From NCBI GenBank assembly GCA_039028615.1, contig JBCCHT010000038.1:1-64000 (forward strand): a DNA stretch of 64,000 nt, read 5' to 3'. Position 1 is the stretch's first letter. Each line of letters starts with the position of its first letter. Made by a program: the position numbers and the translations under genes. This document shows positions 4,528-17,672 of this stretch, piece by piece. Origin of the DNA: Myxococcota bacterium. GTDB lineage: Bacteria; Myxococcota_A; Polyangia; Nannocystales; Nannocystaceae. The notes below the pieces were generated by a model. The model had not been told where the DNA came from, did no database searches, and was given only the letters and a program-made list of their open reading frames with translations.

Positions 4528-4764
4528 AGTGGCCACTGTTCTGGGCGCCTTCGACCGAGGGCGCTCGATCCGGGCATAGGGGCGTCGTATCCCACCATCT
4601 ACTGGCAACGGTTACAGCCACCTACCCAATGCGGCGTAGCGCCCCTGCGGACGCTGCTAAACTTCGGCTCGGAAAACTGTTGGTCTGCGAGTCCTCGTTG
4701 GTTGGACCGCGACCGGGATAGCCCCCGGCGACGTGGGCATGGAGATCGAGGACGGAAACGTAAA

Positions 4765-7032
4765 ATGGCACACGACGGCGGGAGCGGAGGGGAAAGCCCC
4801 ATCGAACGAGTCGCGTATGACTTCGTCTGTGACGAAGGCCCCCCGGACGCGGATTTTCGCGTCTATCGCATACGCTTGATGGAAGAGATCAATGGTTGCT
4901 TCGACCTCGATCTCGACTTGGTGACCGACAACCTCACGGCAGACACCGATCTGTTCATGGGGGCGAGCATCCAGCTCGACATTGCTCGAGGCGAGCACCT
5001 GCGCACGGTCTACGGGGTCGTGATCTCCGTCGATTTCATCGGCCGCTCGGAGGATCGCCTGTTCGTCAACGTTCGGGTCGTGCCCGCGTTCCACCTGCTC
5101 GGGCAGCAGACCCACTCGCGCATCTTCCAGGAGATGAGCGTCCAGGACATCCTCGACGAGGTCCTGGGGACCGAGCTGGGGGCCTATAGCCGCACCCATG
5201 ATCCGGGCAGCGCAGCCCGGGGCACGTCGCCGCGCGACTACTGCGTCCAGTACCGCGAGTCGGACTTCGACTTCTGCGTGCGCCTGATGGAGGAGGAAGG
5301 CATCTCCTACCACTTCGTGCACGACGAGGACGTGGGCCACGAGGTCCTCACGCTCACCTACGAGAACGAGGACTTCACCGACGTCAGGAACGTCGACGAC
5401 AGCTGCGTCATCCCCATCGTGGTGGCGCATGCCGGCCAGGCCGAGCTCGAGTCCATCCGCAACCTCGACTACATGCAGACGCTCACGACCACGTCGAACA
5501 TGCGTCTGGACTACGACTTCATCGCGCCGCTCGAGCCGCTCGAGGACAGCATCGAGGGCACCGATTCGAAGGGCTTCAACCGCCGCGTCTACGACCACAC
5601 GCTGCGGCGCTACATCGAAGACGACGTCGCCGATCGCAACAAGGATCACCTCGAGGCCGCGCAGGTCCGGGGCAAGATCGGCCGCGGAGCGGGCAACGTC
5701 ATCGACTTCAGCGCGGGCAAGGTCTTCGAACTCGAGCGTCACATTCGCGACGATCTCGAGACCAAGTTCCTCATCACTCGTGTGGTGCATACCGGCGAGT
5801 GCCCCGACGAGCTCATGAACGGGGGCATGGGCGGCGACCAGCCGCGCTACGGCAACTCGTTCCAGTGCATCCCGCTCGAGGTGCCCATGCGGCCGCGGCA
5901 GATCACGCCCAAGCCGCGGGTCTACGGCCCCGAGACGGCCATCGTCTCCGGTCCCGAGGAGATCCACGTCGACGAGCACGGGCGCATCAAGGTCCAGTTC
6001 CACTGGGAAGAGGAGCCGACCTACGACGACACCTCGTCGTGCTGGGTTCGCGTGCGCCAGAGCTGGTCGGGGCCCGGCTGGGGCTTCCAGTTCATTCCTC
6101 GCGTGGGGCAGGAGGTCATCGTCGACTTCCTAGGCGGCAATCCGGATCGACCCATCGTCACCGGCACCGTCTACAACGGCGACAACTCCTATCCCTACAC
6201 GATGCCCGACAACAAGACCCAGAGCGGCATCAAGACCGACTCGGTCTCGGGCGACGGCAGCAACGAGCTGCGCTTCGAGGACATGTCGGGCAGCGAGGAA
6301 GTCTACATCCACTGCCAAAAAGACTTCACGATCGCGACCGAGAACGACAAGAACCAGACCACCGGTCACGACGAGACGCTGGCCATCGGCAACGACCGCA
6401 CCAAGACGGTCGGCAACGATCAAAAAGAGACGGTCCAGAACGACAAGACGATCGACGTGCTCGGCAACCACACCGAGTCGATCACCAAGGACATGAAGCT
6501 CACGGTGACGGGCAACCGCAACGTCACCATCGTCAAGAACCACGACGAGACGATCACCGGGGCCTTCACGCAGACGGTCGCCAAGACCAGCAAGGTCACC
6601 GTGGCGCTCAAGTCCGACGAGATCGTCGGGGCCATGAAGTCGGTCAAGGTCGGCGGCCTCTACAGCAACCAGGTGGGCGCGTCCTATAGCGTCACCGCCG
6701 TCGGTGCGCTGTCGATGACCGCGGGTCTCAGCGCCAAGTTCCAGTCCGCCAAGGCGAGCACCGTCCACGCGCAGACCGACCTGACGCTCAAGAGCGACAA
6801 GGACGCCAAGATGACGTCCGGCAAGAAGATGAACATCGAAGCCGGCGACAACATGGTGATCGTTTGCAAGAAGAAGGCGACGGTCAACGCCGCCGATCAG
6901 CTCACCGTGCAGGTCGGCAAGGCCAAGATGGTCCTCAAGAAGAACGGCGACATCACCGTCGAGGGCAAGAAGGTCAACATCAAGGGCTCGGGCCCGGTGA
7001 CGATCAAGGGCTCCAAGGTCTCGATCAACTGA
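4765..7032 (+). CDS. vgrG: Type VI secretion tip protein VgrG (TssI)
   Basis: YCVQYRESDFDFCVRLMEEEGI, IHVDEHGRIKVQFHW, SSCWVRVRQSWSGPGWGFQFIPRVGQEVIVDFLGGNPDRP and NELRFED..EEVYIHCQKD; gp5-like beta-helix repeats; ends at IKGSKVSIN with no toxin extension. Confidence 0.95.
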   Translation: MAHDGGSGGESPIERVAYDFVCDEGPPDADFRVYRIRLMEEINGCFDLDLDLVTDNLTADTDLFMGASIQLDIARGEHLRTVYGVVISVDFIGRSEDRLFVNVRVVPAFHLLGQQTHSRIFQEMSVQDILDEVLGTELGAYSRTHDPGSAARGTSPRDYCVQYRESDFDFCVRLMEEEGISYHFVHDEDVGHEVLTLTYENEDFTDVRNVDDSCVIPIVVAHAGQAELESIRNLDYMQTLTTTSNMRLDYDFIAPLEPLEDSIEGTDSKGFNRRVYDHTLRRYIEDDVADRNKDHLEAAQVRGKIGRGAGNVIDFSAGKVFELERHIRDDLETKFLITRVVHTGECPDELMNGGMGGDQPRYGNSFQCIPLEVPMRPRQITPKPRVYGPETAIVSGPEEIHVDEHGRIKVQFHWEEEPTYDDTSSCWVRVRQSWSGPGWGFQFIPRVGQEVIVDFLGGNPDRPIVTGTVYNGDNSYPYTMPDNKTQSGIKTDSVSGDGSNELRFEDMSGSEEVYIHCQKDFTIATENDKNQTTGHDETLAIGNDRTKTVGNDQKETVQNDKTIDVLGNHTESITKDMKLTVTGNRNVTIVKNHDETITGAFTQTVAKTSKVTVALKSDEIVGAMKSVKVGGLYSNQVGASYSVTAVGALSMTAGLSAKFQSAKASTVHAQTDLTLKSDKDAKMTSGKKMNIEAGDNMVIVCKKKATVNAADQLTVQVGKAKMVLKKNGDITVEGKKVNIKGSGPVTIKGSKVSIN

Positions 7033-7370: not shown

Positions 7371-9362
7371 ATGGATCATCCCATGCGCGCGTGCTCGGCT
7401 TCATCCCTTCGAACCTTCTGTCTATTGCTTGGACCCGCCGCCGTCGTTGCGTTGGCCTCCTCGCCAGCCCACGCGCTCGATCCGTTCGCGGACGCCAGTG
7501 CTCTGCTGAACAACCCGAACTTGTCCAGCGGTGTCGCCATTGGTGTCACCGACATGAACAACGACGGGCTGGACGACATCGTACGACTGGATCAAGCCCA
7601 CGTACTGGAGGTCGAGTACCAACAAGCGGACGGGACCTTCACGCACTACGTGTTTGGTGAGCTGCCGGGCGGTCAGTGGGGATTGGCCATCGGCGACGTC
7701 GATCGCAACGGCTTCAACGACATCTTCACCAGCGGGGCCTACAACGGGCTGAAGCTCCTCACCGCGAACGAGGACGGCACCGAGTTCGATCTCGAGGTGT
7801 TCAACAGCCCCAGCGTGTTCACCCAGTGCGTGAACTTTGCCGACATCGACAACAACGGCACGCTCGACCTGTTCATCTGCCACGACGACGGGATCTCGGC
7901 GCCGATGAACAACGATGGCATGGGTAACTTCACCTATGACCTGGGCCTCATCAACGCCGCCTCGACCCTGCCCTCCGACAACTCGGGGAACTACGGCTCG
8001 GTCTGGACCGACTACGACAGCGACGGGGACCTCGACCTGTACATCGCCAAGTGCCGACTCTTCGTCTCCGAGCCGATGGACGGCCGGCGCTTGAACCTGC
8101 TGTTCGAGAACGACGGCAACGGCAACTTTACCGACGTCGCCGAAGAGGTCGGCCTGCGACCGGGCGCGCAGTCGTGGGCGATGGACTTCGGTGACATCGA
8201 CAACGACGGGGACATGGACGCGTTCCCGCTCAACCACGACATGATCAGCCAGCTGTACGAGAACCTGGGGCCGGGTGACGACCAGGGCATGTACATGGAC
8301 ATCACCGCGGGCTCGGGGATGACCGAAGACCTCCAGAGCGTGGGCCTGGGCATCCAGACCCACATGGAGGACTTCGACAACGACACGTTCCTCGACATCC
8401 TCTTCACGGGGCGCGACGGCGAGCACCGCCTGTTCATCAACAACGGCGACATGACCTTCACCGCCGAGGAAGAGCCCTTCCCCACCGGGGGCCCGGGCAT
8501 CCAGAGCGCGGTGGTCGGTGACCTCAACGCCGACGGCTTCCCGGACATCCTGGCCGGCTTCGCCACGGGCTTCAACAACCCCAGCGACTCGAACCCCGAC
8601 CGCCTGTTCCTCAACCCGGGCAACGACAACAACTGGCTCGACGTGCGCCTGACCGGCGTCGAGAGCAACATCAGCGCGGTGGGTGCTCGCGTCGAGCTGC
8701 ACGGTGCCTGGGGCGTGATGATTCGCGAGGTCCGGGCCGGCGAGGCCTACGGCATCACGAACTCCTTCATCCGCCACTTCGGCCTGGGTGAGAACGAGAC
8801 CATCGATCAGGTCGTCGTTCGCTGGCCCTCGGGACACGTCGACACCGCCGACAACCCGGCCGTGCTCAACGAGCAGGTCCACATCATCGAGGGGTGTGGG
8901 GCCGAGTGGTACCCGGATACCGACGGCGACGGCTTCGGTGATCCCGATGCCGCCATCACCGGCTGCTTGCCGCCCCAGGGCCACGTGCAGGACGCCACCG
9001 ACTGCGACGACACCGACGCGACGGTGTCACCCGACGGCGTCGAGGTCTGCGACGGCATCGACAACGACTGCAACGGTGCGATCGACGACGGCCTCGACGT
9101 TCCCTGCGATCCGGGCGGCACCGATGCGGGCGCCGACACCACCGCGGGCGACGACGTGAACCCCGGCGACTCGGGCCCCATCGACACCGACGGTGGTACC
9201 GCCGGCACGGGTGATGACGCTGGCGCGGCCGATGACGGCTCCGGTGGCGGCTGTGCGTGCGATACTTCGAGTGGCAACGGTGGCGCTGGCTTCACCTTGC
9301 TGACTCTCGGCATGCTCTTCGGTCTGCGACGTCGCCGTCTCAGCCTTCTCGCTCGCCGCTAA
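7371..9362 (+). CDS. Secreted FG-GAP repeat / ASPIC-UnbV (CRTAC1-like) protein with putative metal-binding repeat and MYXO-CTERM anchor
   Basis: Signal peptide ending AHA; repeated DxDxDGxxD motifs; GARVEL...HFGLG...VRWPSG (ASPIC/UnbV); WYPDTDGDGFGD...DCDD...EVCDGIDNDCNG; C-terminal GGGCAC-x-TM-RRRR. Confidence 0.88.
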   Translation: MDHPMRACSASSLRTFCLLLGPAAVVALASSPAHALDPFADASALLNNPNLSSGVAIGVTDMNNDGLDDIVRLDQAHVLEVEYQQADGTFTHYVFGELPGGQWGLAIGDVDRNGFNDIFTSGAYNGLKLLTANEDGTEFDLEVFNSPSVFTQCVNFADIDNNGTLDLFICHDDGISAPMNNDGMGNFTYDLGLINAASTLPSDNSGNYGSVWTDYDSDGDLDLYIAKCRLFVSEPMDGRRLNLLFENDGNGNFTDVAEEVGLRPGAQSWAMDFGDIDNDGDMDAFPLNHDMISQLYENLGPGDDQGMYMDITAGSGMTEDLQSVGLGIQTHMEDFDNDTFLDILFTGRDGEHRLFINNGDMTFTAEEEPFPTGGPGIQSAVVGDLNADGFPDILAGFATGFNNPSDSNPDRLFLNPGNDNNWLDVRLTGVESNISAVGARVELHGAWGVMIREVRAGEAYGITNSFIRHFGLGENETIDQVVVRWPSGHVDTADNPAVLNEQVHIIEGCGAEWYPDTDGDGFGDPDAAITGCLPPQGHVQDATDCDDTDATVSPDGVEVCDGIDNDCNGAIDDGLDVPCDPGGTDAGADTTAGDDVNPGDSGPIDTDGGTAGTGDDAGAADDGSGGGCACDTSSGNGGAGFTLLTLGMLFGLRRRRLSLLARR

Positions 9363-9377
9363 CTAAAGGAAGAGGCT

Positions 9378-11315
9378 TTGGCGCGCACATCCTTCGTTTC
9401 TTCATTGCGTCGGGGGATCGGGCCGGTTGCCGTCATGGCGGCCGGCCTCGCGTGCCCAGCCGCGGTGCTCGCAGCACCAACCCAGCCCGAAGAGCTGGTC
9501 AATCCCCTGTCCCCGCCCGTGACCTGCGAGCTGTGCCACGGCTACGAGAACGCGGTGAAGGACTTCGGGGAGCCGGACTATTCGCCCTTCCGTACCTGGC
9601 AGGGGACGCTCATGGCCAACTCCGCCCGGGACCCCGTGTTCTGGGCCGGGGTGGCGGTGGCGGCCGAGGATGCGCCCGGGGAGACGGAGCTGTGCATTCG
9701 CTGCCACTCGCCGCGGGCCTTTCTCAACGGCAACGCGCCCGCGGTCACGAGCTTCGATCAGCTCGAGCCCGAGGAGCGCGAGGGGGTCGAGTGCGAGCTG
9801 TGCCATCGGGCGATGGAGGATCCGGTGGTGCCGCCCGGCAACGCGGCCTACACCATCGACGACACGATCGTCGGGGTGAACGTGCCGCGACGAGGCCCGT
9901 GGGACTACAGCGATGGCATCCCCGAGCCGCCCCATAGCTGGATCGCCGATCCCTATATTGGCAGCTCGCGGCTATGCGGCACCTGCCACGACGTCACCAC
10001 CAATACCGAGCGGGTCGACGCGGCCGGCATCGGTATGGGCATGAACTTCAACGAGCAGCGGACCTATAGCGAGTGGGCCAACAGCGCCTACGCCGTGCCG
10101 GGGGTCGACTTCCAGGGCTGCCAGAGCTGCCATATGCCCGCGGTGCCCGACATGGCGGGCTGCACGGCGCATCTCAATCAGCACACGCACCCGACCGGGG
10201 GTCGCCGCCACGACCTGGTGGGCGCCAACCGCTTCATGGTCGGCCTGCTGCGCGACGAGTACGGCTCGGCCGGCGCCAACCTGATCGCGGATTTCTACTT
10301 CGACAACGCCATCGCGGCGATGGACGAGTTCCTGCCGACCGCGGCGTCGGTGGACTTCGTGGCGCCGACCAACATCGACCTCGAGGAGGGTCTCGAGGAG
10401 ACCTTCGTCACCATCACGAACAACACGGGCCACAAGCTGCCGTCGGGATACTCCGAGGGGCGGGTCATGTGGCTCGAGTTCACCGCGTCGTACGGCGGCG
10501 AGGTCATCTACAGCTCGGGCGAGTGGAACCAGGTCTCGGGAGAGATCCACGAGGATTCGCAGCTGCGGACCTACGAAGCGATCGGCATGCGCTGGTCCGA
10601 CGGCACCACGCTGCACCTGCTGCTCAACGACTACTGGCTCGAGGACAACCGCATCCCGCCCCTGGGGCTGACGCCAGACATCGAGACCGATCCGGTCGGT
10701 GATCGCTACACGCTGCTGCCGGGCGGGACCTGGCCCAACTTCGATCGCCACTCGTACGACTTCCCGGCCGCGCCCGAGATCTACGACGTCACGCCCGCGG
10801 ACCCCGACGACGACTTCCTCGAGGTCACGGTCCGCGTCCGCTACATCATCAACAACGCCGAGTACATGGACTTCCTCGAGGCCGAGGCCGGCGAGGCGGG
10901 CATGCACGTGGCGACGCTCTTCGACTTGGCCGGTGGCGCGACCCCGGTGACCTTGGGCGAGGGCACGGTCGAGATCCCCATCGTGAACTTCGGGGCCGAG
11001 AACCCGGGGGGCAACGAGACCACGGCGGGCGGCGAGAGCACCTCGAACACGACGACCGGGGGCGGCCCCACCAGCGCGACCGACGGCCCGCCCAACACCA
11101 CCGGTCCCGGACAGAACGACACCACCGCGGCGTCGTTGCCCGGGGGCACGATGAGCGTCTCGAGCGGCACCACGGGCGACACGGAGCCGGGAGCGGCCGA
11201 CGACGACGGTGGGGGCTGTGACTGCCGCAGCGGGGGCGGATCGGGCATGCCCGGGGCCGCGCTGCTGTCGATGATGCTGCTGGGCCTGCGCCGGCGCCGA
11301 CGCACGGGGACGTGA
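9378..11315 (+). CDS. Multiheme (5 CxxCH) c-type cytochrome with MYXO-CTERM anchor
   Basis: CELCH, CIRCH, CELCH, CGTCH and CQSCH; GHKLPSG motif; signal peptide; Thr/Gly linker; GGGCDC-x-TM-RRRRR tail. Confidence 0.88.
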   Translation: MARTSFVSSLRRGIGPVAVMAAGLACPAAVLAAPTQPEELVNPLSPPVTCELCHGYENAVKDFGEPDYSPFRTWQGTLMANSARDPVFWAGVAVAAEDAPGETELCIRCHSPRAFLNGNAPAVTSFDQLEPEEREGVECELCHRAMEDPVVPPGNAAYTIDDTIVGVNVPRRGPWDYSDGIPEPPHSWIADPYIGSSRLCGTCHDVTTNTERVDAAGIGMGMNFNEQRTYSEWANSAYAVPGVDFQGCQSCHMPAVPDMAGCTAHLNQHTHPTGGRRHDLVGANRFMVGLLRDEYGSAGANLIADFYFDNAIAAMDEFLPTAASVDFVAPTNIDLEEGLEETFVTITNNTGHKLPSGYSEGRVMWLEFTASYGGEVIYSSGEWNQVSGEIHEDSQLRTYEAIGMRWSDGTTLHLLLNDYWLEDNRIPPLGLTPDIETDPVGDRYTLLPGGTWPNFDRHSYDFPAAPEIYDVTPADPDDDFLEVTVRVRYIINNAEYMDFLEAEAGEAGMHVATLFDLAGGATPVTLGEGTVEIPIVNFGAENPGGNETTAGGESTSNTTTGGGPTSATDGPPNTTGPGQNDTTAASLPGGTMSVSSGTTGDTEPGAADDDGGGCDCRSGGGSGMPGAALLSMMLLGLRRRRRTGT

Positions 11316-11353
11316 GCAGGCTCCGATTTCGCGCGGATCCGGGCTGAAGCCCC

Positions 11354-11407
11354 ACGAAGGGCCTCAGGAGCCGCATTTGAAGGCGGCCTGAGGCCCTCGT
11401 CGCTTTG
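11354..11407 (+). terminator. Long intergenic hairpin, probable terminator of the FG-GAP/cytochrome operon
   Basis: AGGGCCTCAGG (11358-11368) / CCTGAGGCCCT (11387-11397) with an inner GCCGC/GCGGC stem; only a weak T tail (CGCTTT). Confidence 0.5.
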
Positions 11408-11469
11408 CCGGCGTCCCACCGTGGTGCGTCGAGGCCGTTTGGCCCAAGATCCACGGGCTGGCGACCGCC

Positions 11470-14145
11470 ATGTCCTCGTCCTCTGCACCGTCTTCTACTT
11501 CGTCTGGGTCCGGCTTCGTCGCCGTCGACGGGCGCGCGCTGTCGCTGCGTTCCATTCGTGTCGACGTCGAGTGCCGGGCCGGGACCAGCCGCGTCGAGCT
11601 TCGGCAGGTCTTCGTCAATCCCCATGCCGACGGTGTTCGCGGTCGCTACAAGCTGCCTCTGCCCGCGCGGGCTTCACTGAGCGGACTGCAGTTCCGCGTC
11701 GACGGCCGGCAGCTCGGTCGCACCAAGCCCAAGCCCAAGGGCGGCGCGCTGGTGCACAAGGTCGGGCCGGTGCCGGCCGGGGCAGAGCTCGAAGTGGCCG
11801 TGACCCTCGAGCATCGCCTGGCGCGAGCCAAGGGTGACGAGCCCGGGACCTGGGAGTGGCGCATGCCGGGCCTGGTGAGCAAGCCGGCCGAGGGCGCGCC
11901 GCGACCCGAGCAGTCGCTGGTGCTGACCATCGGCGACGGTGAGCTCGACGGCGAGCCTCGCTCGCCCTCGCATGGGCTCGTGGCTCAGGCCGTGGACGAA
12001 GGCCATCGCGTCGGGTTGGCGGGTGAAGGCCCCGGGCTCGAGCGCGAGGTGGTGGTCCGCTGGACGGCGCGTACCGCCGCCGAGGAATCGAAGCCCGCCC
12101 GCGGCGACGGCCCCCGGGTGCGCCGCAACAAAGAGGGCGTGATCGTCGGAACGGGCGCGCCCGCGTCGGGGCCGAAGGTGGTGGGCTTCATCTCGCTGCC
12201 CACGGACAAGCGCAAGGGGCCGGCCAAGAAGGTCGTGGTCACCAACAAGGCCACCGAGGCCCCCGCCAAGGGGGCGGGCGACGGCCGGGCCTCGCAGCGC
12301 AAGCGTCGAGAAGAGCGACGCATGAAAAAAGACCTTCGCCACCGCGCGCGTGGCCGCAGGGGTCGCGAGGACAAGGCACCTCCGGGGTCGAACACCGCGG
12401 AGATGAGCGAGAAGAAGAAGAAGGTGCGGGTCGACGGCCAGATCCGCGTCTCCGACCTCGCCCGGGGCCTGAGCCAGGGCGCGGCGCAAGTACTGCGCGT
12501 GCTGTGGAGCGCGGGGCACCGCGGGGTGACCCTCAACGATGCGATCGACGTCGAAGCGGCCGAGCTGGTCGCGGCCGAGTTCGGCTACACCGTCGAGAAC
12601 GTCGCGTTCCAGGAAGAAGAGCTCATCGGCGGGCCGGTGGCGGAGGGCGAGCTGCGCCCGCCCGTGGTCGCGGTCATGGGCCACGTCGACCACGGCAAGA
12701 CCACGCTGCTCGATCGCATTCGCAACACCAAGGTGGCGGCGGGCGAGGCCGGGGGCATCACCCAGCACATGGGCGCCCAGCGGGTCTCCACCGAGCACGG
12801 CGACGTCGTGTTCCTCGACACTCCGGGCCACGAGGCGTTCAGCGCCATGCGGGAGCGCGGGGCCGAGGTCACCGACATCGTGCTGCTCGTGGTGGCGGCC
12901 GACGACGGGGTCATGCCCACGACCATCGAGGCGATCAAGCAAGCCCGGCAGGCCAAGGTGCCGATGGTGGTGGCGCTGAACAAGATCGACAAGCCGCAGG
13001 CCGATCCGCAGCGTGTCTCCCAGTCGCTGATGGAGTGGGAGATCGTCGGCGAGGCCTACGGCGGCGACGTGCCCATCCTGCCCGTGTCGGCCAAGACCGG
13101 GGAGGGGCTCGAGGGCATGCTCGAGACCCTGGCGCTGCAGGCCGAGGTGCTCGAGCTGCGGGCGCCCGTCGAAGGGCGCGCCCGCGGTGCGGTGCTCGAG
13201 GCTCGGGTCGACAAGGGGCGCGGGGCGATCGCGACGGTGCTGGTGCAGTCGGGTACGCTGTCGCGGGGAGACCTGCTCGTGGTCGGCGAGCTGCACGGCA
13301 AGGTCCGCGGCCTCATCGGCGCCGACGGCAAGACCCTACGCTCGGTCGGCCCGTCGACGCCCGTCGACGTGCTGGGGCTGTCGGGCTTGCCCGCGGTGGG
13401 CGAGACCTTCGACGCCGTGGACAAAGAGCGCGACGCACGAGCGCTGGTGAGCCACCGTCGGGAGAAGCGCCTGGGGCAGAGCAAGGGCCGCGCCGGTCCC
13501 TCGATCGAGGAGCGCCTGAACCGAGGCAAGCGGAAGATCATTCGCATCGTGCTCAAGGCCGACGTCGGCGGCTCGGCCCAGGCGCTGAGCAAGGCGCTCG
13601 AGGAGCTCGGCGACGACGAGATCGAGATCCAGGTGCTGCAGGCCGAGGTCGGAGGCATCACCGAGGCCGACATCAAGTACGCGGAGGCCAGCGACGCCAT
13701 GGTCATGGGCTTCGGCGTCAAGGCGATGGCCCGGGCGATGTCGGTGGCCGAGGCCGACGGGGTGAAGGTCCAGACCTTCAAGATCATCTACGAAGCCCTC
13801 GAGGCCCTGCAGGAATCCATGCAGGCCCTGCGCGAGCCCGAGTTCCGCGAGCGGGACCAAGGCGAGGCCGAGATCCGCGCGCTCTTCCCCATTCCCAGCA
13901 AGGGCGTGGTGGCCGGGTGCCGCGTGGTCAAGGGCGTCATCGAGCGCAGCAGCCGGGTGCGGGTCGTCCGCGACGGCGAGATCATCCACGACGGCACCAT
14001 CGCCTCGTTGCGGATCTTCGAGGACGACGTTCGCGAGGTGAAGGACGGCTTCGAGTGCGGGATCATGATCGATGGCTTCTCCGAGGTGCAGGAGGGCGAC
14101 ACGATCAAGGCCTACGCTCTCGAGCAGGTCCCGCCCGGCCGCTGA
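11470..14145 (+). CDS. infB: Translation initiation factor IF-2 homologue with N-terminal VIT-like domain (probable paralogue/fusion)
   Basis: IF2_N-like segment ([11 protein letters not shown]...[10 protein letters not shown]); G1 [41 protein letters not shown]2 domain with GFECGI. The N-terminal ~200 aa resemble VIT proteins ([21 protein letters not shown]). Confidence 0.9.
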
Positions 14146-14258
14146 GCGCGGCGCCCACCCGCCGGAGCACGGGATCACCGCCCCAATTCGGGGCGGGGCG
14201 AGAAAAACTGTTAACCAGGCTTGTAATGATCGAAGCCGAGCGGGAATGGTGACAAGCG

Positions 14259-14897
14259 ATGGGTGCTCGCTCCGAACCGCAGCTTCGCGTCATCGAAGGT
14301 GACGCCGAAGCCCCCGCCGAAGGCCGTGCGCGGCTGCTGGAGCGGGCGCGAGCGGGTGATTCGAGCGCCTGGTCACAGCTGTATCAGGAGAGCTTCGCCG
14401 GCCTACTGCGGCACGTCACCTTCATGGTGCTCGATGTCGAGGTGGCCGAGGACCTGTGCCAAGAGGCCTTTGCGGTCGCCTTCGCCAATATCGAGCGCAG
14501 CTTCGATCCCTCGGGGTCGTTCGAGGCGTGGGTGCGAGGCATCGCCCACAACCTGGTGCGCAAGCACTGGCGCAAGCGCCAACGCCGCGATCGGGCCCAC
14601 GCCAAGCTCGAGGTCGTGGCCGACCGGGAAAGCGAGGGAAGGGTGAACGAGCAAGTCGATCGGCTCGAGCGGGAGCGGCGGGCGGATGCCCTGTCGGCGG
14701 CGCTCGAGCTGATCCCGGCCAACCTCCGCGAGGCCTTCGTGCTCAGCGACATCCGCGAGCTGTCGGCGGCGGAGGGGGCCGACATTCTGGGAATTTCTCC
14801 CGGCAACTTTCGCGTCCGCGTCTCGCGAGCCCGCACGCGGCTCCGGGCGTTGCTGACCGATGCCGGGATCATCAGCCGGACCGTGGTGTCGTCATGA
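14259..14897 (+). CDS. ECF sigma-70 family RNA polymerase sigma factor
   Basis: ARAGDSSAWSQLY, AEDLCQEAF and SFEAWVRGIAHN (region 2); LREAFVL...LSAAEGADILGISPGNFRVRVSRAR (region 4). Confidence 0.92.
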   Translation: MGARSEPQLRVIEGDAEAPAEGRARLLERARAGDSSAWSQLYQESFAGLLRHVTFMVLDVEVAEDLCQEAFAVAFANIERSFDPSGSFEAWVRGIAHNLVRKHWRKRQRRDRAHAKLEVVADRESEGRVNEQVDRLERERRADALSAALELIPANLREAFVLSDIRELSAAEGADILGISPGNFRVRVSRARTRLRALLTDAGIISRTVVSS

Positions 14898-15844
14898 GCG
14901 AGCTGCCCGGCGTCGACGAGCTGCGGAGCAAGCTCGAGCGAGATGCTCGAGACGTGCCGACGGACTTTGCCGACGTCATGGCGCGCATGCGAGCGAACGC
15001 GGACGACGACGAGGACGTGGTCGGGGCCGATGCGGTCGCTGGCTCGGGTGCCGAGTCGCTCGATCCCGCGGAGCTCGAGTCCGAGGCGGACCGGGTGGCG
15101 CTGGCCCCCGCGTGCGAGGCCCTGCGCGAGCGCATCGAGGCATCGCTCGCCGAGGCCGACATGCCGCCGCTGGCGGTGGTGGAGAAGCGACGTCCCGTCG
15201 TGGGCTGGGTGATCGGAGCGGTGGTGCTGGCCGCCGCCGCGGTCGTGCTGACCTGGCAGGTGCCCCAGCTGTTGTCGCAGCAGCCGCGCGAGCGGGTCGA
15301 CAACCTCGCGTCCGACGAGCGTCGGCTCGACGGTGACAACGGAGGGCAGGCGGTCCAAGGGGTCGAGTCGGAGACGGTCACGCCGCGGCGCACGGTGAAG
15401 GCACCCGAGCCCGCGCCGCAGCCCGCCGTGGAAGTCGAGCCGGAGCCGGAACCCGAGCCCGCCGTCGAAGCGGAGCCGGAGCCGGAGCCCGAGGCCAAGA
15501 CGAACCGTCGCTCTCGGGCCGAACGCCTGCGGATCCTCGACGAGCGGGCCCAGTCCCGCTGGAAAGCCGGCGACGTGCAAGGGGCCCAGAAGATCTACCG
15601 TGCGCTCGTGCGCGTGGGCGGTCGTCATCCTCGGGTGGAGCTGGCCTACGCCGAGCTGTTTGCCCTCGGACGACAGCGAGGAGAAGACCTCGCGCCGCTG
15701 TGGCGGGCCTACCTGCGCCGCTTCCCCAATGGGCGTTACACTCGTGAGGCCAAGGCGGGACTGTGCCGGCAAGCGAGCGGGAGCAAACGGAAGCAGTGTT
15801 GGGCCGAGTACGCCGAGCGGTTCCCCGAGTCTGGACACGAATGA
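14894..15844 (+). CDS. Single-pass membrane protein with EP-rich linker and C-terminal TPR-like helices; putative anti-sigma factor
   Basis: ATG 14894 overlaps the sigma stop (ATGA); TM VVGWVIGAVVLAAAAVVLTW; EPEPEP linker; WRAYLRRFPNGRY motif. The anti-sigma role is inferred from position. Confidence 0.75.
   Translation: MSELPGVDELRSKLERDARDVPTDFADVMARMRANADDDEDVVGADAVAGSGAESLDPAELESEADRVALAPACEALRERIEASLAEADMPPLAVVEKRRPVVGWVIGAVVLAAAAVVLTWQVPQLLSQQPRERVDNLASDERRLDGDNGGQAVQGVESETVTPRRTVKAPEPAPQPAVEVEPEPEPEPAVEAEPEPEPEAKTNRRSRAERLRILDERAQSRWKAGDVQGAQKIYRALVRVGGRHPRVELAYAELFALGRQRGEDLAPLWRAYLRRFPNGRYTREAKAGLCRQASGSKRKQCWAEYAERFPESGHE
15405..15493 (+). repeat. (GAGCCG/GAGCCC)n coding repeat for an EPEPEP linker
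   Basis: Tandem hexamers are visible in the DNA; a similar tract lies at about 17007-17061. Confidence 0.7.
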
Positions 15845-16512
15845 TCCCACCCGGGGCCCGCATCTCGCTCGTCTGTACGCTGGCCTTCGTGGCGGCGTGC
15901 CTGGTCGAGTACCAGATCCCCGAGCCGGAGGAGGTCGTCGACCCCGAGGACTGCGCGGCTCCGCTGCTCGTCTGCGACAACGCGTGTATCGACCCGGCCG
16001 TGGACGAGCGGCACTGTGGCGTCTGCGGCAGCGAGTGCGAGCTGGGAGACCAGTGCGTCGAGGGCGAGTGCGTCGCGACCTGTGATGACTGCGATCCCTT
16101 CCTCGAGATCTGTGACGCCGGCCAGTGCATCTGCCGGGGCGGCCTGGAGCTGTGCGACGGCGAGTGCGTGCCGCTGTACAGCGACGGCGACAACTGTGGG
16201 GCCTGCGGCGAGCCCTGCATCGTCGGCGAGGTCTGCATCGACGGCGAGTGCCTCGCCGAAGCCTGCCCCGCCGACGAGTGCGATGGGGAGTGCACCGACT
16301 TCGGGCTCGATCCGCTCAACTGTGGCGCGTGCGGCCGGGCGTGCGTCGGCGAGGAGCTGTGTGTCGACGCGACCTGTCGAGCCTTCGAGGTGATCGAAGG
16401 GTGTGGCGAGTGCCCTTGCCTCGAGCAGTGTGATCCCGAGATCGGTGAGACCTGCTGCTTCTCGGAGCTGCTCGACGTCGAGGTCTGCTTCCAGGGGGGC
16501 GAGTGTCTGTGA
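15841..16512 (+). CDS. Cysteine-rich repeat lipoprotein (myxobacterial NCG.CG..C type)
   Basis: ATG 15841 overlaps the previous stop (ATGA); lipobox-like VAAC; repeats HCGVCGSEC, NCGACGEPC and NCGACGRAC. Confidence 0.8.
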   Translation: MIPPGARISLVCTLAFVAACLVEYQIPEPEEVVDPEDCAAPLLVCDNACIDPAVDERHCGVCGSECELGDQCVEGECVATCDDCDPFLEICDAGQCICRGGLELCDGECVPLYSDGDNCGACGEPCIVGEVCIDGECLAEACPADECDGECTDFGLDPLNCGACGRACVGEELCVDATCRAFEVIEGCGECPCLEQCDPEIGETCCFSELLDVEVCFQGGECL

Positions 16513-17672
16513 ACCTCGGGGCGGCTGCCCTGGCCTGGCTCGTGTTCGGGACGGCGCCCGCCGGGTCGCCCGGCGGCGAAGACCCTGCGAGCGTGGCCGG
16601 AGCGAAGCAACCCCAGGACGCTCGCTTCGAGTCGGTCCTGCTCGCCAGCGAAGGACTCGACGCCGCGGGGCTCGATGCCGAGCTGAGCCTACGGCTGCCC
16701 GACTTGGCGCTCCACCGTCAGTGGGACCTGGCCCAGGACGCCGACAACCTCGGTCACTACGTGTTCGTGCACATGGCCCGCGACGAGCGTGGCGGCGTGG
16801 CCTTGGAGCTCATTACCGACGACGCCGAGGCCTTCGTCCGCGAGATCGAAGGCGGCGACGAGACGGAGCGCGTAGCGGCCAGCTTCGTGGTGGCGATCTT
16901 GTCGTCGATCGAAGCTCAGGAAGTCAGGGCCGATCGCAGTGATGTCGCGGCCCCGGTCAGCGCCGAGACGGAAGAAGTCACGCGAGCCGTCGAGGTCGCC
17001 AAGGGCGAGGCCGAGCCCGAGCCGGAACCCGAGCCCGCCCCGGAACCCGAGCCCGAGCCCGCGCCGGTCGAGAGCGCCGAGCCAGCCGCGGCCCCGCGCA
17101 AGGTGGTGTGGGAGCTGGGCACGTGGGTCGGCGGTGGGGTGGTGGTCGCGATGCCGCCCGCGAGCTTCGGCTCTGCATTGGCGGGCGGCGGCGGCTCGAT
17201 GGCGATGCTCGCCCGCGGCCCGCACGGCATGCTCGTGGGCGCCTCGCTGCGGGTCATCGGGCGGATCGTCGATGGCCACTCGCTGACGCGAGTGCGTACG
17301 ACCGCCCACGTGGGCTGGGCCTGGCGTCGCGGCCCGGTGGAGCTGCCCCTGGCCGGCTACGCGGGCATGGAGCCCTGGTCTCTGCGCGATGCCGGGACCG
17401 CGGTCTCGGCCACCGACCTCGGAGCCCAGGCGGCGCTGCTCAACGCGGGCGGATGGTTCGCCCCCGGGGGGTTGGTGCAGCTCGATCGCAGCAAGATGTT
17501 CTCCGCCCTGCGCGTGGGCGGGCGGCTCGACCTCGGCACGGCCTTCGTGCTCGACGGCGGCCCTCGGGTGGCGGGCATCCGCGACGTGGACGGCAACCCC
17601 CTGTTCCGCATGGGGGGCTTCGAGCTGGGTATCGGGCTCGACCTGTGCCTCTATATGGGCATCGAGCGCTGA
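16509..17672 (+). CDS. Exported hypothetical protein with possible C-terminal outer-membrane beta-barrel
   Basis: GTG overlaps the previous stop (GTGA); signal-like N-terminus; EPEP linker; alternating Gly/hydrophobic strands ending GGFELGIGLDLCLY. Confidence 0.65.
   Translation: MNLGAAALAWLVFGTAPAGSPGGEDPASVAGAKQPQDARFESVLLASEGLDAAGLDAELSLRLPDLALHRQWDLAQDADNLGHYVFVHMARDERGGVALELITDDAEAFVREIEGGDETERVAASFVVAILSSIEAQEVRADRSDVAAPVSAETEEVTRAVEVAKGEAEPEPEPEPAPEPEPEPAPVESAEPAAAPRKVVWELGTWVGGGVVVAMPPASFGSALAGGGGSMAMLARGPHGMLVGASLRVIGRIVDGHSLTRVRTTAHVGWAWRRGPVELPLAGYAGMEPWSLRDAGTAVSATDLGAQAALLNAGGWFAPGGLVQLDRSKMFSALRVGGRLDLGTAFVLDGGPRVAGIRDVDGNPLFRMGGFELGIGLDLCLYMGIER

Follow-up and report, generated by a model that had tools for sequence, protein, structure and literature searches.

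A single gene in the window (the whole stretch of Myxococcota DNA that was analysed, 64,000 nucleotides) encodes a VIT-type β-sandwich of 198 residues fused to a translation initiation factor IF2 that lacks the N1 repeat alone. The fusion is real and conserved, and represents a variant of IF2 and no new kind of system. As far as sequence comparison can show, infB was duplicated in one sub-lineage of the family, and the copy was grafted in frame onto the 5' portion of a VIT-vWA gene.

Architecture of the fusion gene

The gene occupies positions 11470..14145 of the forward strand as a single open frame of 891 codons, with a GC3 of 0.78-0.98 along its length, just as the sequence-only reading had described it. 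It is defined by its ORF, by TIGR00487 and Pfam matches, and by two homologues, P0002 and P0165. The IF-2 equivalog model TIGR00487 gives 664.5 bits (cut-off 424.4), and Pfam places GTP_EFTU at residues 400-555, EF-G_D2 at 571-648, IF-2 at 678-780 and GTP_EFTU_D2 at 812-879. The match to IF2_N (residues 325-373) reaches 25.2 bits, 0.1 below the cut-off of 25.3, and the same repeat scores 37 bits in P0165. At the N-terminus, VIT (PF08487) matches residues 26-82 with 35.5 bits (cut-off 26.5), covering only positions 1-57 of the 111 in the model. VIT, GTP_EFTU and IF-2 were thus all matched, as had been anticipated.

The β-sandwich, an all-β double sandwich derived from the 5'-terminal part of a VIT-vWA gene (residues 1-198, ending in ..VVRW; 11470..12063, +), is defined by the Pfam VIT match, alignment to 125 VIT-vWA proteins, an AlphaFold2 model and a match to the structure 6fpy. 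Two sites at which donor sequence is missing lie at 11713..11739 (deletion 1) and 11881..11905 (deletion 2), both on the forward strand. The sandwich is followed by a low-complexity junction spacer (residues 199-213; 12064..12108, +), which is spanned by one Logan contig. IF2-derived sequence runs from approximately residue 214 and retains the linker, N2 and all core domains, N1 being absent. Its parts, all on the forward strand, are a basic linker (residues 214-311; 12109..12402), which aligns with canonical and second-copy IF2s and carries the hairpin-like motif conserved in the family; the N2 repeat (12442..12588; Pfam and alignment), without the N1 repeat of the canonical copy; the G domain (12667..13134; Pfam and motif reading), in which G1-G5 and the catalytic His of DTPGH are all intact; domains II and III (13180..13809; Pfam); and the fMet-tRNA-binding domain IV/C2 (13903..14106; Pfam and alignment to E. 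coli IF2). Within C2, Glu851 (14020..14022, +) is the equivalent of E. coli Lys849 in the fMet pocket. The earlier claim that the C-terminal ~580 residues form a complete IF-2 therefore holds for the core domains, but the IF2 origin begins at about residue 214 and not at 311, the linker having been kept.

Two further fusions share the junction

Two other proteins of the same architecture were found in public data: P0002 (ENA, 889 aa), which is 90% identical to the window fusion (P0001), and P0165 (NCBI, 928 aa), which is 59% identical to it. In all three, the switch from VIT to IF2 follows the same tryptophan, and the breakpoint is thus common to all. Their IF2 cores form one clade (SH-aLRT 100), nested (100) among the canonical IF2s of the genera g1, g9, g10, g13 and g27, with a long stem branch leading to the fusions. 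The tree that includes P0165 was a quick one of 43 rows with eight of the 11 outgroups left out; a careful 50-row tree without P0165 places the fusions identically. The proposal of the sequence-only reading that a duplicated IF-2 had been placed on a VIT scaffold is supported by the domain scans, the predicted fold, the three sequences and the tree.

A Logan contig covers the window from 9047 to 12700, across the junction, at a depth of 19.7 and with zero differences, although it stems from the probable source run and is therefore no independent sample. Misassembly is rejected because the three fusions share a breakpoint and form one clade; P0002 and P0165, together with the contig, rule it out. 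An artefact or decaying pseudogene, created by misassembly or a chance in-frame join, has next to no probability: all three sequences do come from assemblies of probably metagenomic data, and P0007, which clusters with P0002, ends in a C-terminal tail that is not IF2, but three distinct sequences from different sources have a common junction, an independently assembled contig spans it, and both the reading frame and the hydrophobic core are conserved at depth. Two database proteins look chimeric, namely P0007, whose tail begins after domain III, and P0157, which has a tandem repeat of IF2 domains.

A search of proteins clustered at 50% with residues 1-300 returned P0002 as the sole fusion, with IF2 in none of the 149 other matches listed. 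This search missed P0165, probably because the latter is clustered under P0002, and further fusions may therefore be hidden. The ESM Atlas returned IF2 clusters only, all below 0.9. For the source DNA of P0002 and P0165, metagenome scans gave nothing or ordinary IF2 only and a genome-contig scan gave one unrelated VIT match; neither protein is found among the 73 genomes of the order. The fusion was not found in any of the five congeneric genomes examined (72-95% complete), nor in any other genome among the 73 of the family; it is therefore rare, and repeated loss is probable.

Origin and fold of the N-terminal module

The relatives of the module constitute a myxobacterial VIT-vWA subfamily, with the vWA MIDAS motif present in 125 of the 149 other matches listed, and its identity to the bacterial donor proteins is 35-43%. 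AlphaFold2, supplied with a donor-rich alignment, predicts a 13-strand all-β fold with a pLDDT of 91.6, a confidence that partly reflects the donors. The top Foldseek matches of this model are to ITIH1, while VIA-align gives what amounts to a tie between lpg2210 (Z 13.4), ITIH1 6fpy (Z 12.9) and a trypanosome protein (Z 12.6); 169 residues align with 6fpy at an rmsd of 2.9, across ITIH1 residues 48-267. According to the available text of PMC7170535, ITIH1 residues 45-265 form HC-Hybrid2 together with C-terminal helices and strands, and Hybrid1 starts at residue 266. Hence, the graft break corresponds to the Hybrid2/Hybrid1 domain border.

As modelled, the module is the N-terminal part of an ITIH1-like Hybrid2 sandwich whose C-terminal complement is missing. 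The vWA domain with its MIDAS, Hybrid1, and the C-terminal helices and strand that complete Hybrid2, all contained in the donor model, are absent from the fusion, the sequence of which is IF2 after residue 198. The first ~200 residues had been likened to a VIT-vWA protein up to the start of vWA; the VIT assignment stands, but the VIT-vWA-derived part ends at the domain border, ~50 residues before the MIDAS motif, and has suffered two internal deletions. Relative to the donor alignment and donor model, the window module lacks a helix (donor residues 88-100) and part of the next strand (~23 aa, deletion 1), and, by the donor alignment, a loop of ~18 aa (deletion 2). The loop is gone from all three fusions, and P0165 is intermediate in that its deletion 1 helix segment has kept its length, with a degenerate sequence. 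The deleted segments probably touched the C-terminal parts of the donor that have been lost.

The hydrophobic donor columns are still hydrophobic at 44 of 51 positions in each fusion, 31 highly conserved donor residues are kept in all three, and the VIT parts share derived residues (e.g., P25S, A35C, D114E and W119R). The two fusion lineages retain 68% identity in their IF2 cores and 40% in their modules, the latter below the donor-donor median of 51%. Conservation amounts to 40 of 101 strand positions and 33 of 80 loop positions, with no excess in strands. Since strands are no better conserved than loops at 40% identity, no strongly conserved new surface is visible; selection for the fold of the module is clear, and selection for a particular surface is not. 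Between P0001 and P0002, 174 of the 198 VIT residues are identical, without an indel. In IF2 pairs of the family that are comparably distant at the protein level, 19-38% of synonymous sites differ, and a neutral simulation at 15% change yields at most 78% identity, which serves only as a proxy for constraint on the P0001/P0002 VIT part. The module carries a net charge of +3 to +5, versus -5.3 ± 3.9 for the donors, of which two in 125 reach +3; on the query's columns alone the shift is modest, with 21 of 125 donors reaching the lowest fusion value.

These data bear on the main rival reading, a somewhat unlikely one, according to which the module would be a passenger on a second factor of the IF2-β/γ kind, comparable to the unfused second copies of the family: a VIT fragment would have supplied the start codon at duplication and been kept since a misfolded N-terminus is harmful. 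The homology of the fusion N-terminus to the start region of the donors would agree with this, as would the progressive deletion of module segments, a divergence faster than that of the donors among themselves, and the fact that 14 of the 16 unfused second IF2 copies of the family appear, by eye, to begin shortly before the linker motif without N1. The module is also less codon-adapted (0.62-0.66) than the IF2 core (0.73-0.87), but this is weak evidence because the N-terminus of canonical IF2 lies lower still (0.57). Moreover, the in-frame deletions struck segments seemingly tied to the lost C-terminal half, and both lineages kept the sandwich entire as their cores drifted apart, which speaks against a mere passenger.

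The putative donors occur in a conserved two-gene unit (L039:5710-8818, L044 and L068-L084), in which a cytoplasmic VIT-vWA gene precedes a sigma70-r2-like gene (Pfam E 2e-4, below the cut-off). Of 15 upstream regions, 10 and 11 contain the respective halves of a promoter-like motif, TGTCAC-N16-CGTTGG, and the unit could be an ECF system that regulates itself and includes a VIT-vWA partner. The donor operon of G003 lies after a gene whose orthologue in G000, the source genome of the window, sits on contig C18, which is without the operon. The best intact paralogue in G000 is only 32% identical to the donors; nine VIT-domain matches were found in that genome, eight of them in other long ORFs.

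Canonical infB and repeated IF2 duplication

Housekeeping infB is normally a single-copy gene in nusA-infB-rbfA whose product carries N1. In G000 (12.3 Mb, 68% GC), a marine myxobacterium for which the names on close IF2 relatives suggest Nannocystaceae, the canonical gene, with N1, lies in a nusA-infB-rbfA-truB-pnp operon on contig C48, which rules out the fusion as the sole infB, and no nusA or rbfA is located near the fusion gene. The two IF2s are 64% identical over the C-terminal 580 residues. IF1, IF3 and fmt are each represented once over cut-off in G000, IF2 alone being doubled. Loss of formylation as the driver was discarded, fmt being present.

Unfused, stand-alone second IF2 genes were found in 16 of the 72 other genomes of the family (L037, L038 and L047-L060; genomes G013, G018, G031, G035, G044, G045 and G065-G074), that is, in all 11 genomes of genus g14 and in G013, G031, G035, G044 and G045. 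One g14 copy has a broken frame and was left out of the trees. None of the second-copy stretches fetched, some of them on short contigs, contains nusA or rbfA, and N1 is kept in two of the copies. The dN/dS ratios of seven second-copy pairs (0.07-0.35) indicate purifying selection. The g14-type copy has an insertion in domain II and is without a K849 equivalent. Two long open frames (1675 and 1789 aa) that surround the second copies in G069 and G072 were dismissed as fusions, as by eye they look like shadow frames of neighbours. Outside the family, two IF2 matches were obtained in six of 208 sampled genomes of the class, four of them with low best scores that suggest split genes.

With P0165 included, AU tests rejected a common origin for the fusions and the g14 copies (p=0.009). 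Without P0165, they did not reject it (p=0.06) but did reject a common origin for the second copies as a whole (p=0.025). Before P0165 was added, a count of sites slightly favoured a link between the fusions and g14 (8 vs 5). Since second IF2 genes that lack VIT are frequent in the family, the fusion is one branch of a wider, repeated IF2 duplication. By the same comparisons, the unfused copies derive from duplications separate from that of the fusion, one of which has also lost K849.

GTPase motifs and the fMet pocket

G1-G5 and the catalytic His are intact in the fusions, with the exception of a K to V change in G5 of P0002, and 14 of 148 columns that are near-invariant in 33 canonical IF2s differ in P0001 and/or P0002. 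The most telling of these differences is at E851: the corresponding site of E. coli K849 is occupied by E, E and N in the three fusions. It is K in each of the 33 canonical IF2s of the class sample and in all 67 metagenome IF2s with a readable motif (80 loci examined); among second copies, it is non-K (D, E, N or V) in 10 of 10 aligned g14 sequences and K in the other five. The R847 site is I in the fusion and V in most canonical IF2s of the family. The housekeeping IF2s of the family (L001:7900-10686 and others) have mostly Val and sometimes Ile, Ser or Arg at this site, with Arg in 11 class outgroups. The rest of the C2 pocket is intact in the fusion (equivalents of F804, A813, G814, C815, R846, E860, C861 and G862).

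In E. coli IF2, K849 is reported to contact the formyl group (Table 1, a review table, in PMC9601768), and R847G lowers the affinity for fMet-tRNA with GTPase activity kept and ~70% translation (available text of PMC8709274). The same text describes R847G as a suppressor of the dominant-lethal H448E. N1 of E. coli IF2 binds NusA (PMC12297416, as far as its available text goes).

An altered fMet pocket beside intact GTPase motifs, in a genome where IF2 alone is doubled, would also fit a factor that moonlights outside initiation, performing a side job of IF2 such as cold-shock ribosome maturation, chaperone activity or replication restart; the sandwich would then be the domain that binds the client or site. 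Such side roles of IF2 have been published (accessible portions of PMC12297416, PMC3334882 and PMC6511841). We nevertheless hold this to be distinctly unlikely, since the gene context points to neither cold shock nor DNA repair and the intact remainder of the C2 pocket fits continued contact with tRNA.

Neighbourhood and regulation

Upstream of the fusion, window positions 7371-11315 encode an FG-GAP/ASPIC protein and a multiheme cytochrome c, a pair whose synteny extends to four congeners; in each of the four examined, a different gene comes next after the cytochrome. The Cys-Gly/hydrophobic/Arg-rich tails of both proteins resemble a myxobacterial sorting signal. Further upstream (4702-7032), a gene for a VgrG-like protein (by eye) lies beside a Ser/Thr kinase-TPR gene. 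Downstream, positions 14259-17672 hold a four-gene cassette of an ECF sigma factor, a TPR-bearing putative anti-sigma factor, a Cys-rich STIG1-like protein and a membrane protein, parts of which recur together in G065, G032 and G038. No conserved neighbourhood of the fusion was found in the congeners and relatives examined, and the neighbours, not being conserved with it, are therefore uninformative on its function.

Between the cytochrome gene and the fusion (11316-11470) lies a long stable hairpin (z -2.8), single-copy in the genome, which is possibly a terminator or leader structure. A sigma-70 scan gave no forward promoter for the fusion. On the minus strand, a promoter-like site (14226-14255, TTGTCA...) that resembles an ECF -35 element is aimed into the 3' end of the fusion and may be due to chance.

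The gene had been proposed to encode a specialised or stress/conflict-related GTPase. Specialisation is plausible, given the missing N1 and the changed lysine of the fMet pocket. The other half of the proposal, an inducible IF2 mimic that would block or redirect translation under stress or phage attack, might be argued from the patchy distribution, the long stem branch and the adjacent ECF cassette, but is unsupported and quite improbable: the cassette occurs without IF2 in relatives, the ECF-type promoter motif of the donors is absent upstream of the fusion in the window, no mobile context was seen around the gene, and a plasmid search with the N-terminal 300 residues gave no match. Furthermore, an intact catalytic His combined with a seemingly weakened pocket is the opposite of the dominant-lethal H448E mutant.

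A proposed role for the fusion

The explanation that we favour, at a little under an even chance, is an accessory subunit-joining IF2 with low affinity for fMet-tRNA, in which N1 has been replaced by a new docking domain. An infB copy was fused in frame to the initial ~200 codons of a cytoplasmic VIT-vWA gene, whose N-terminus it took over, and lost N1. To judge from sequence and prediction, the graft then shed the helix and loop segments of the donor and kept its hydrophobic core, leaving a compact β-sandwich on IF2's own linker. The IF2 core would still bind 30S, promote 50S joining and hydrolyse GTP, while the change of K849 to E or N, on top of the V or I that replaces R847 in most canonical IF2s of the family, would leave it with a weak grip on fMet-tRNA. 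Such a factor would therefore suit fMet-independent or low-stringency jobs, e.g., late 70S maturation or the re-joining of idle subunits, and would not displace the housekeeping factor. The sandwich would replace N1, the NusA tether in E. coli, as a docking domain at a different partner, which is the weakest step of the proposal; the partner could be RNA or the ribosome, given the basic charge that the module has acquired. The available text of PMC10539598 portrays VIT modules as hubs of interaction.

Several observations tell against the accessory, docking-domain reading: no partner gene travels with the window fusion, the module is less conserved between the fusion lineages than the donors are at their median, and the fusion was not found in any of the five congeners. 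An extra domain is, moreover, evidently not needed, because most other second copies carry none. A bolder version, which we consider unlikely, is that the family repeatedly escaped a ban on IF2 duplication, with two independent duplicates converging on K849 loss to form a class of fMet-independent joining factors, and that one lineage swapped the NusA-binding N1 for a trimmed VIT sandwich, giving a natural "re-addressed" IF2 that is docked on a new partner and initiates translation or builds ribosomes for a chosen place or set of mRNAs.

Comparison with known systems

IF2 was found in one copy in 191 genomes (available text of PMC1780047), and PMC4342817, in its available part, counts zero bacterial IF2 duplications, the reason being unclear. 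At least three separate, retained IF2 duplications in one family make this open question testable, and they suggest as an answer that an IF2 duplicate is tolerated once N1 has been lost and the grip on fMet weakened. The repeated duplication with parallel loss of K849 is thus of as much interest as the graft itself. The fusion, for its part, would amount to a natural domain swap at the position that couples IF2 to NusA in E. coli, and a VIT sandwich that persists without vWA could show a role of the module's own. In the literature searched, with most subscription papers and bioRxiv supplements outside its scope, no description of an IF2 paralogue or of a VIT-IF2 fusion was found, in keeping with the earlier impression that the architecture was undescribed.

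Among bacterial IF2s (TIGR00487), the nearest counterparts are the short E. coli isoforms IF2-β/γ, which resemble the fusion in having N2, G, II, III and IV with intact GTPase motifs and no N1. The fusion differs in that it has a gene of its own away from the nusA operon, carries a foreign domain of 198 residues in the place of domain I, and has K849 replaced. With VIT-vWA proteins (ITIH1 6FPY, Dictyostelium Vwa1 and the myxobacterial L039 type) it has the N-terminal β-sandwich in common. Unlike these, it is without Hybrid1, vWA/MIDAS, the three-helix bundle and the C-terminal strand(s) (VITpt2), and it has two internal deletions; the promoter motif and sigma-like partner gene of the VIT-vWA donors are also missing. 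EF-GII and the actinomycete EF-Tu2, specialised paralogues of other translational GTPases, are likewise diverged duplicates kept beside a housekeeping factor, whereas for IF2 no bacterial duplication is counted in the available part of PMC4342817. A second myxobacterial IF2 is nonetheless already on record in the supplement of that paper, where Haliangium ochraceum is given two IF2s, the second of 876 aa, although this is undiscussed in the available text. It is, like the fusion, a stand-alone extra IF2 gene in a myxobacterium, given there as a table row. Finally, the 16 unfused second IF2s of the family are stand-alone genes as well, but have no VIT domain and arose separately.
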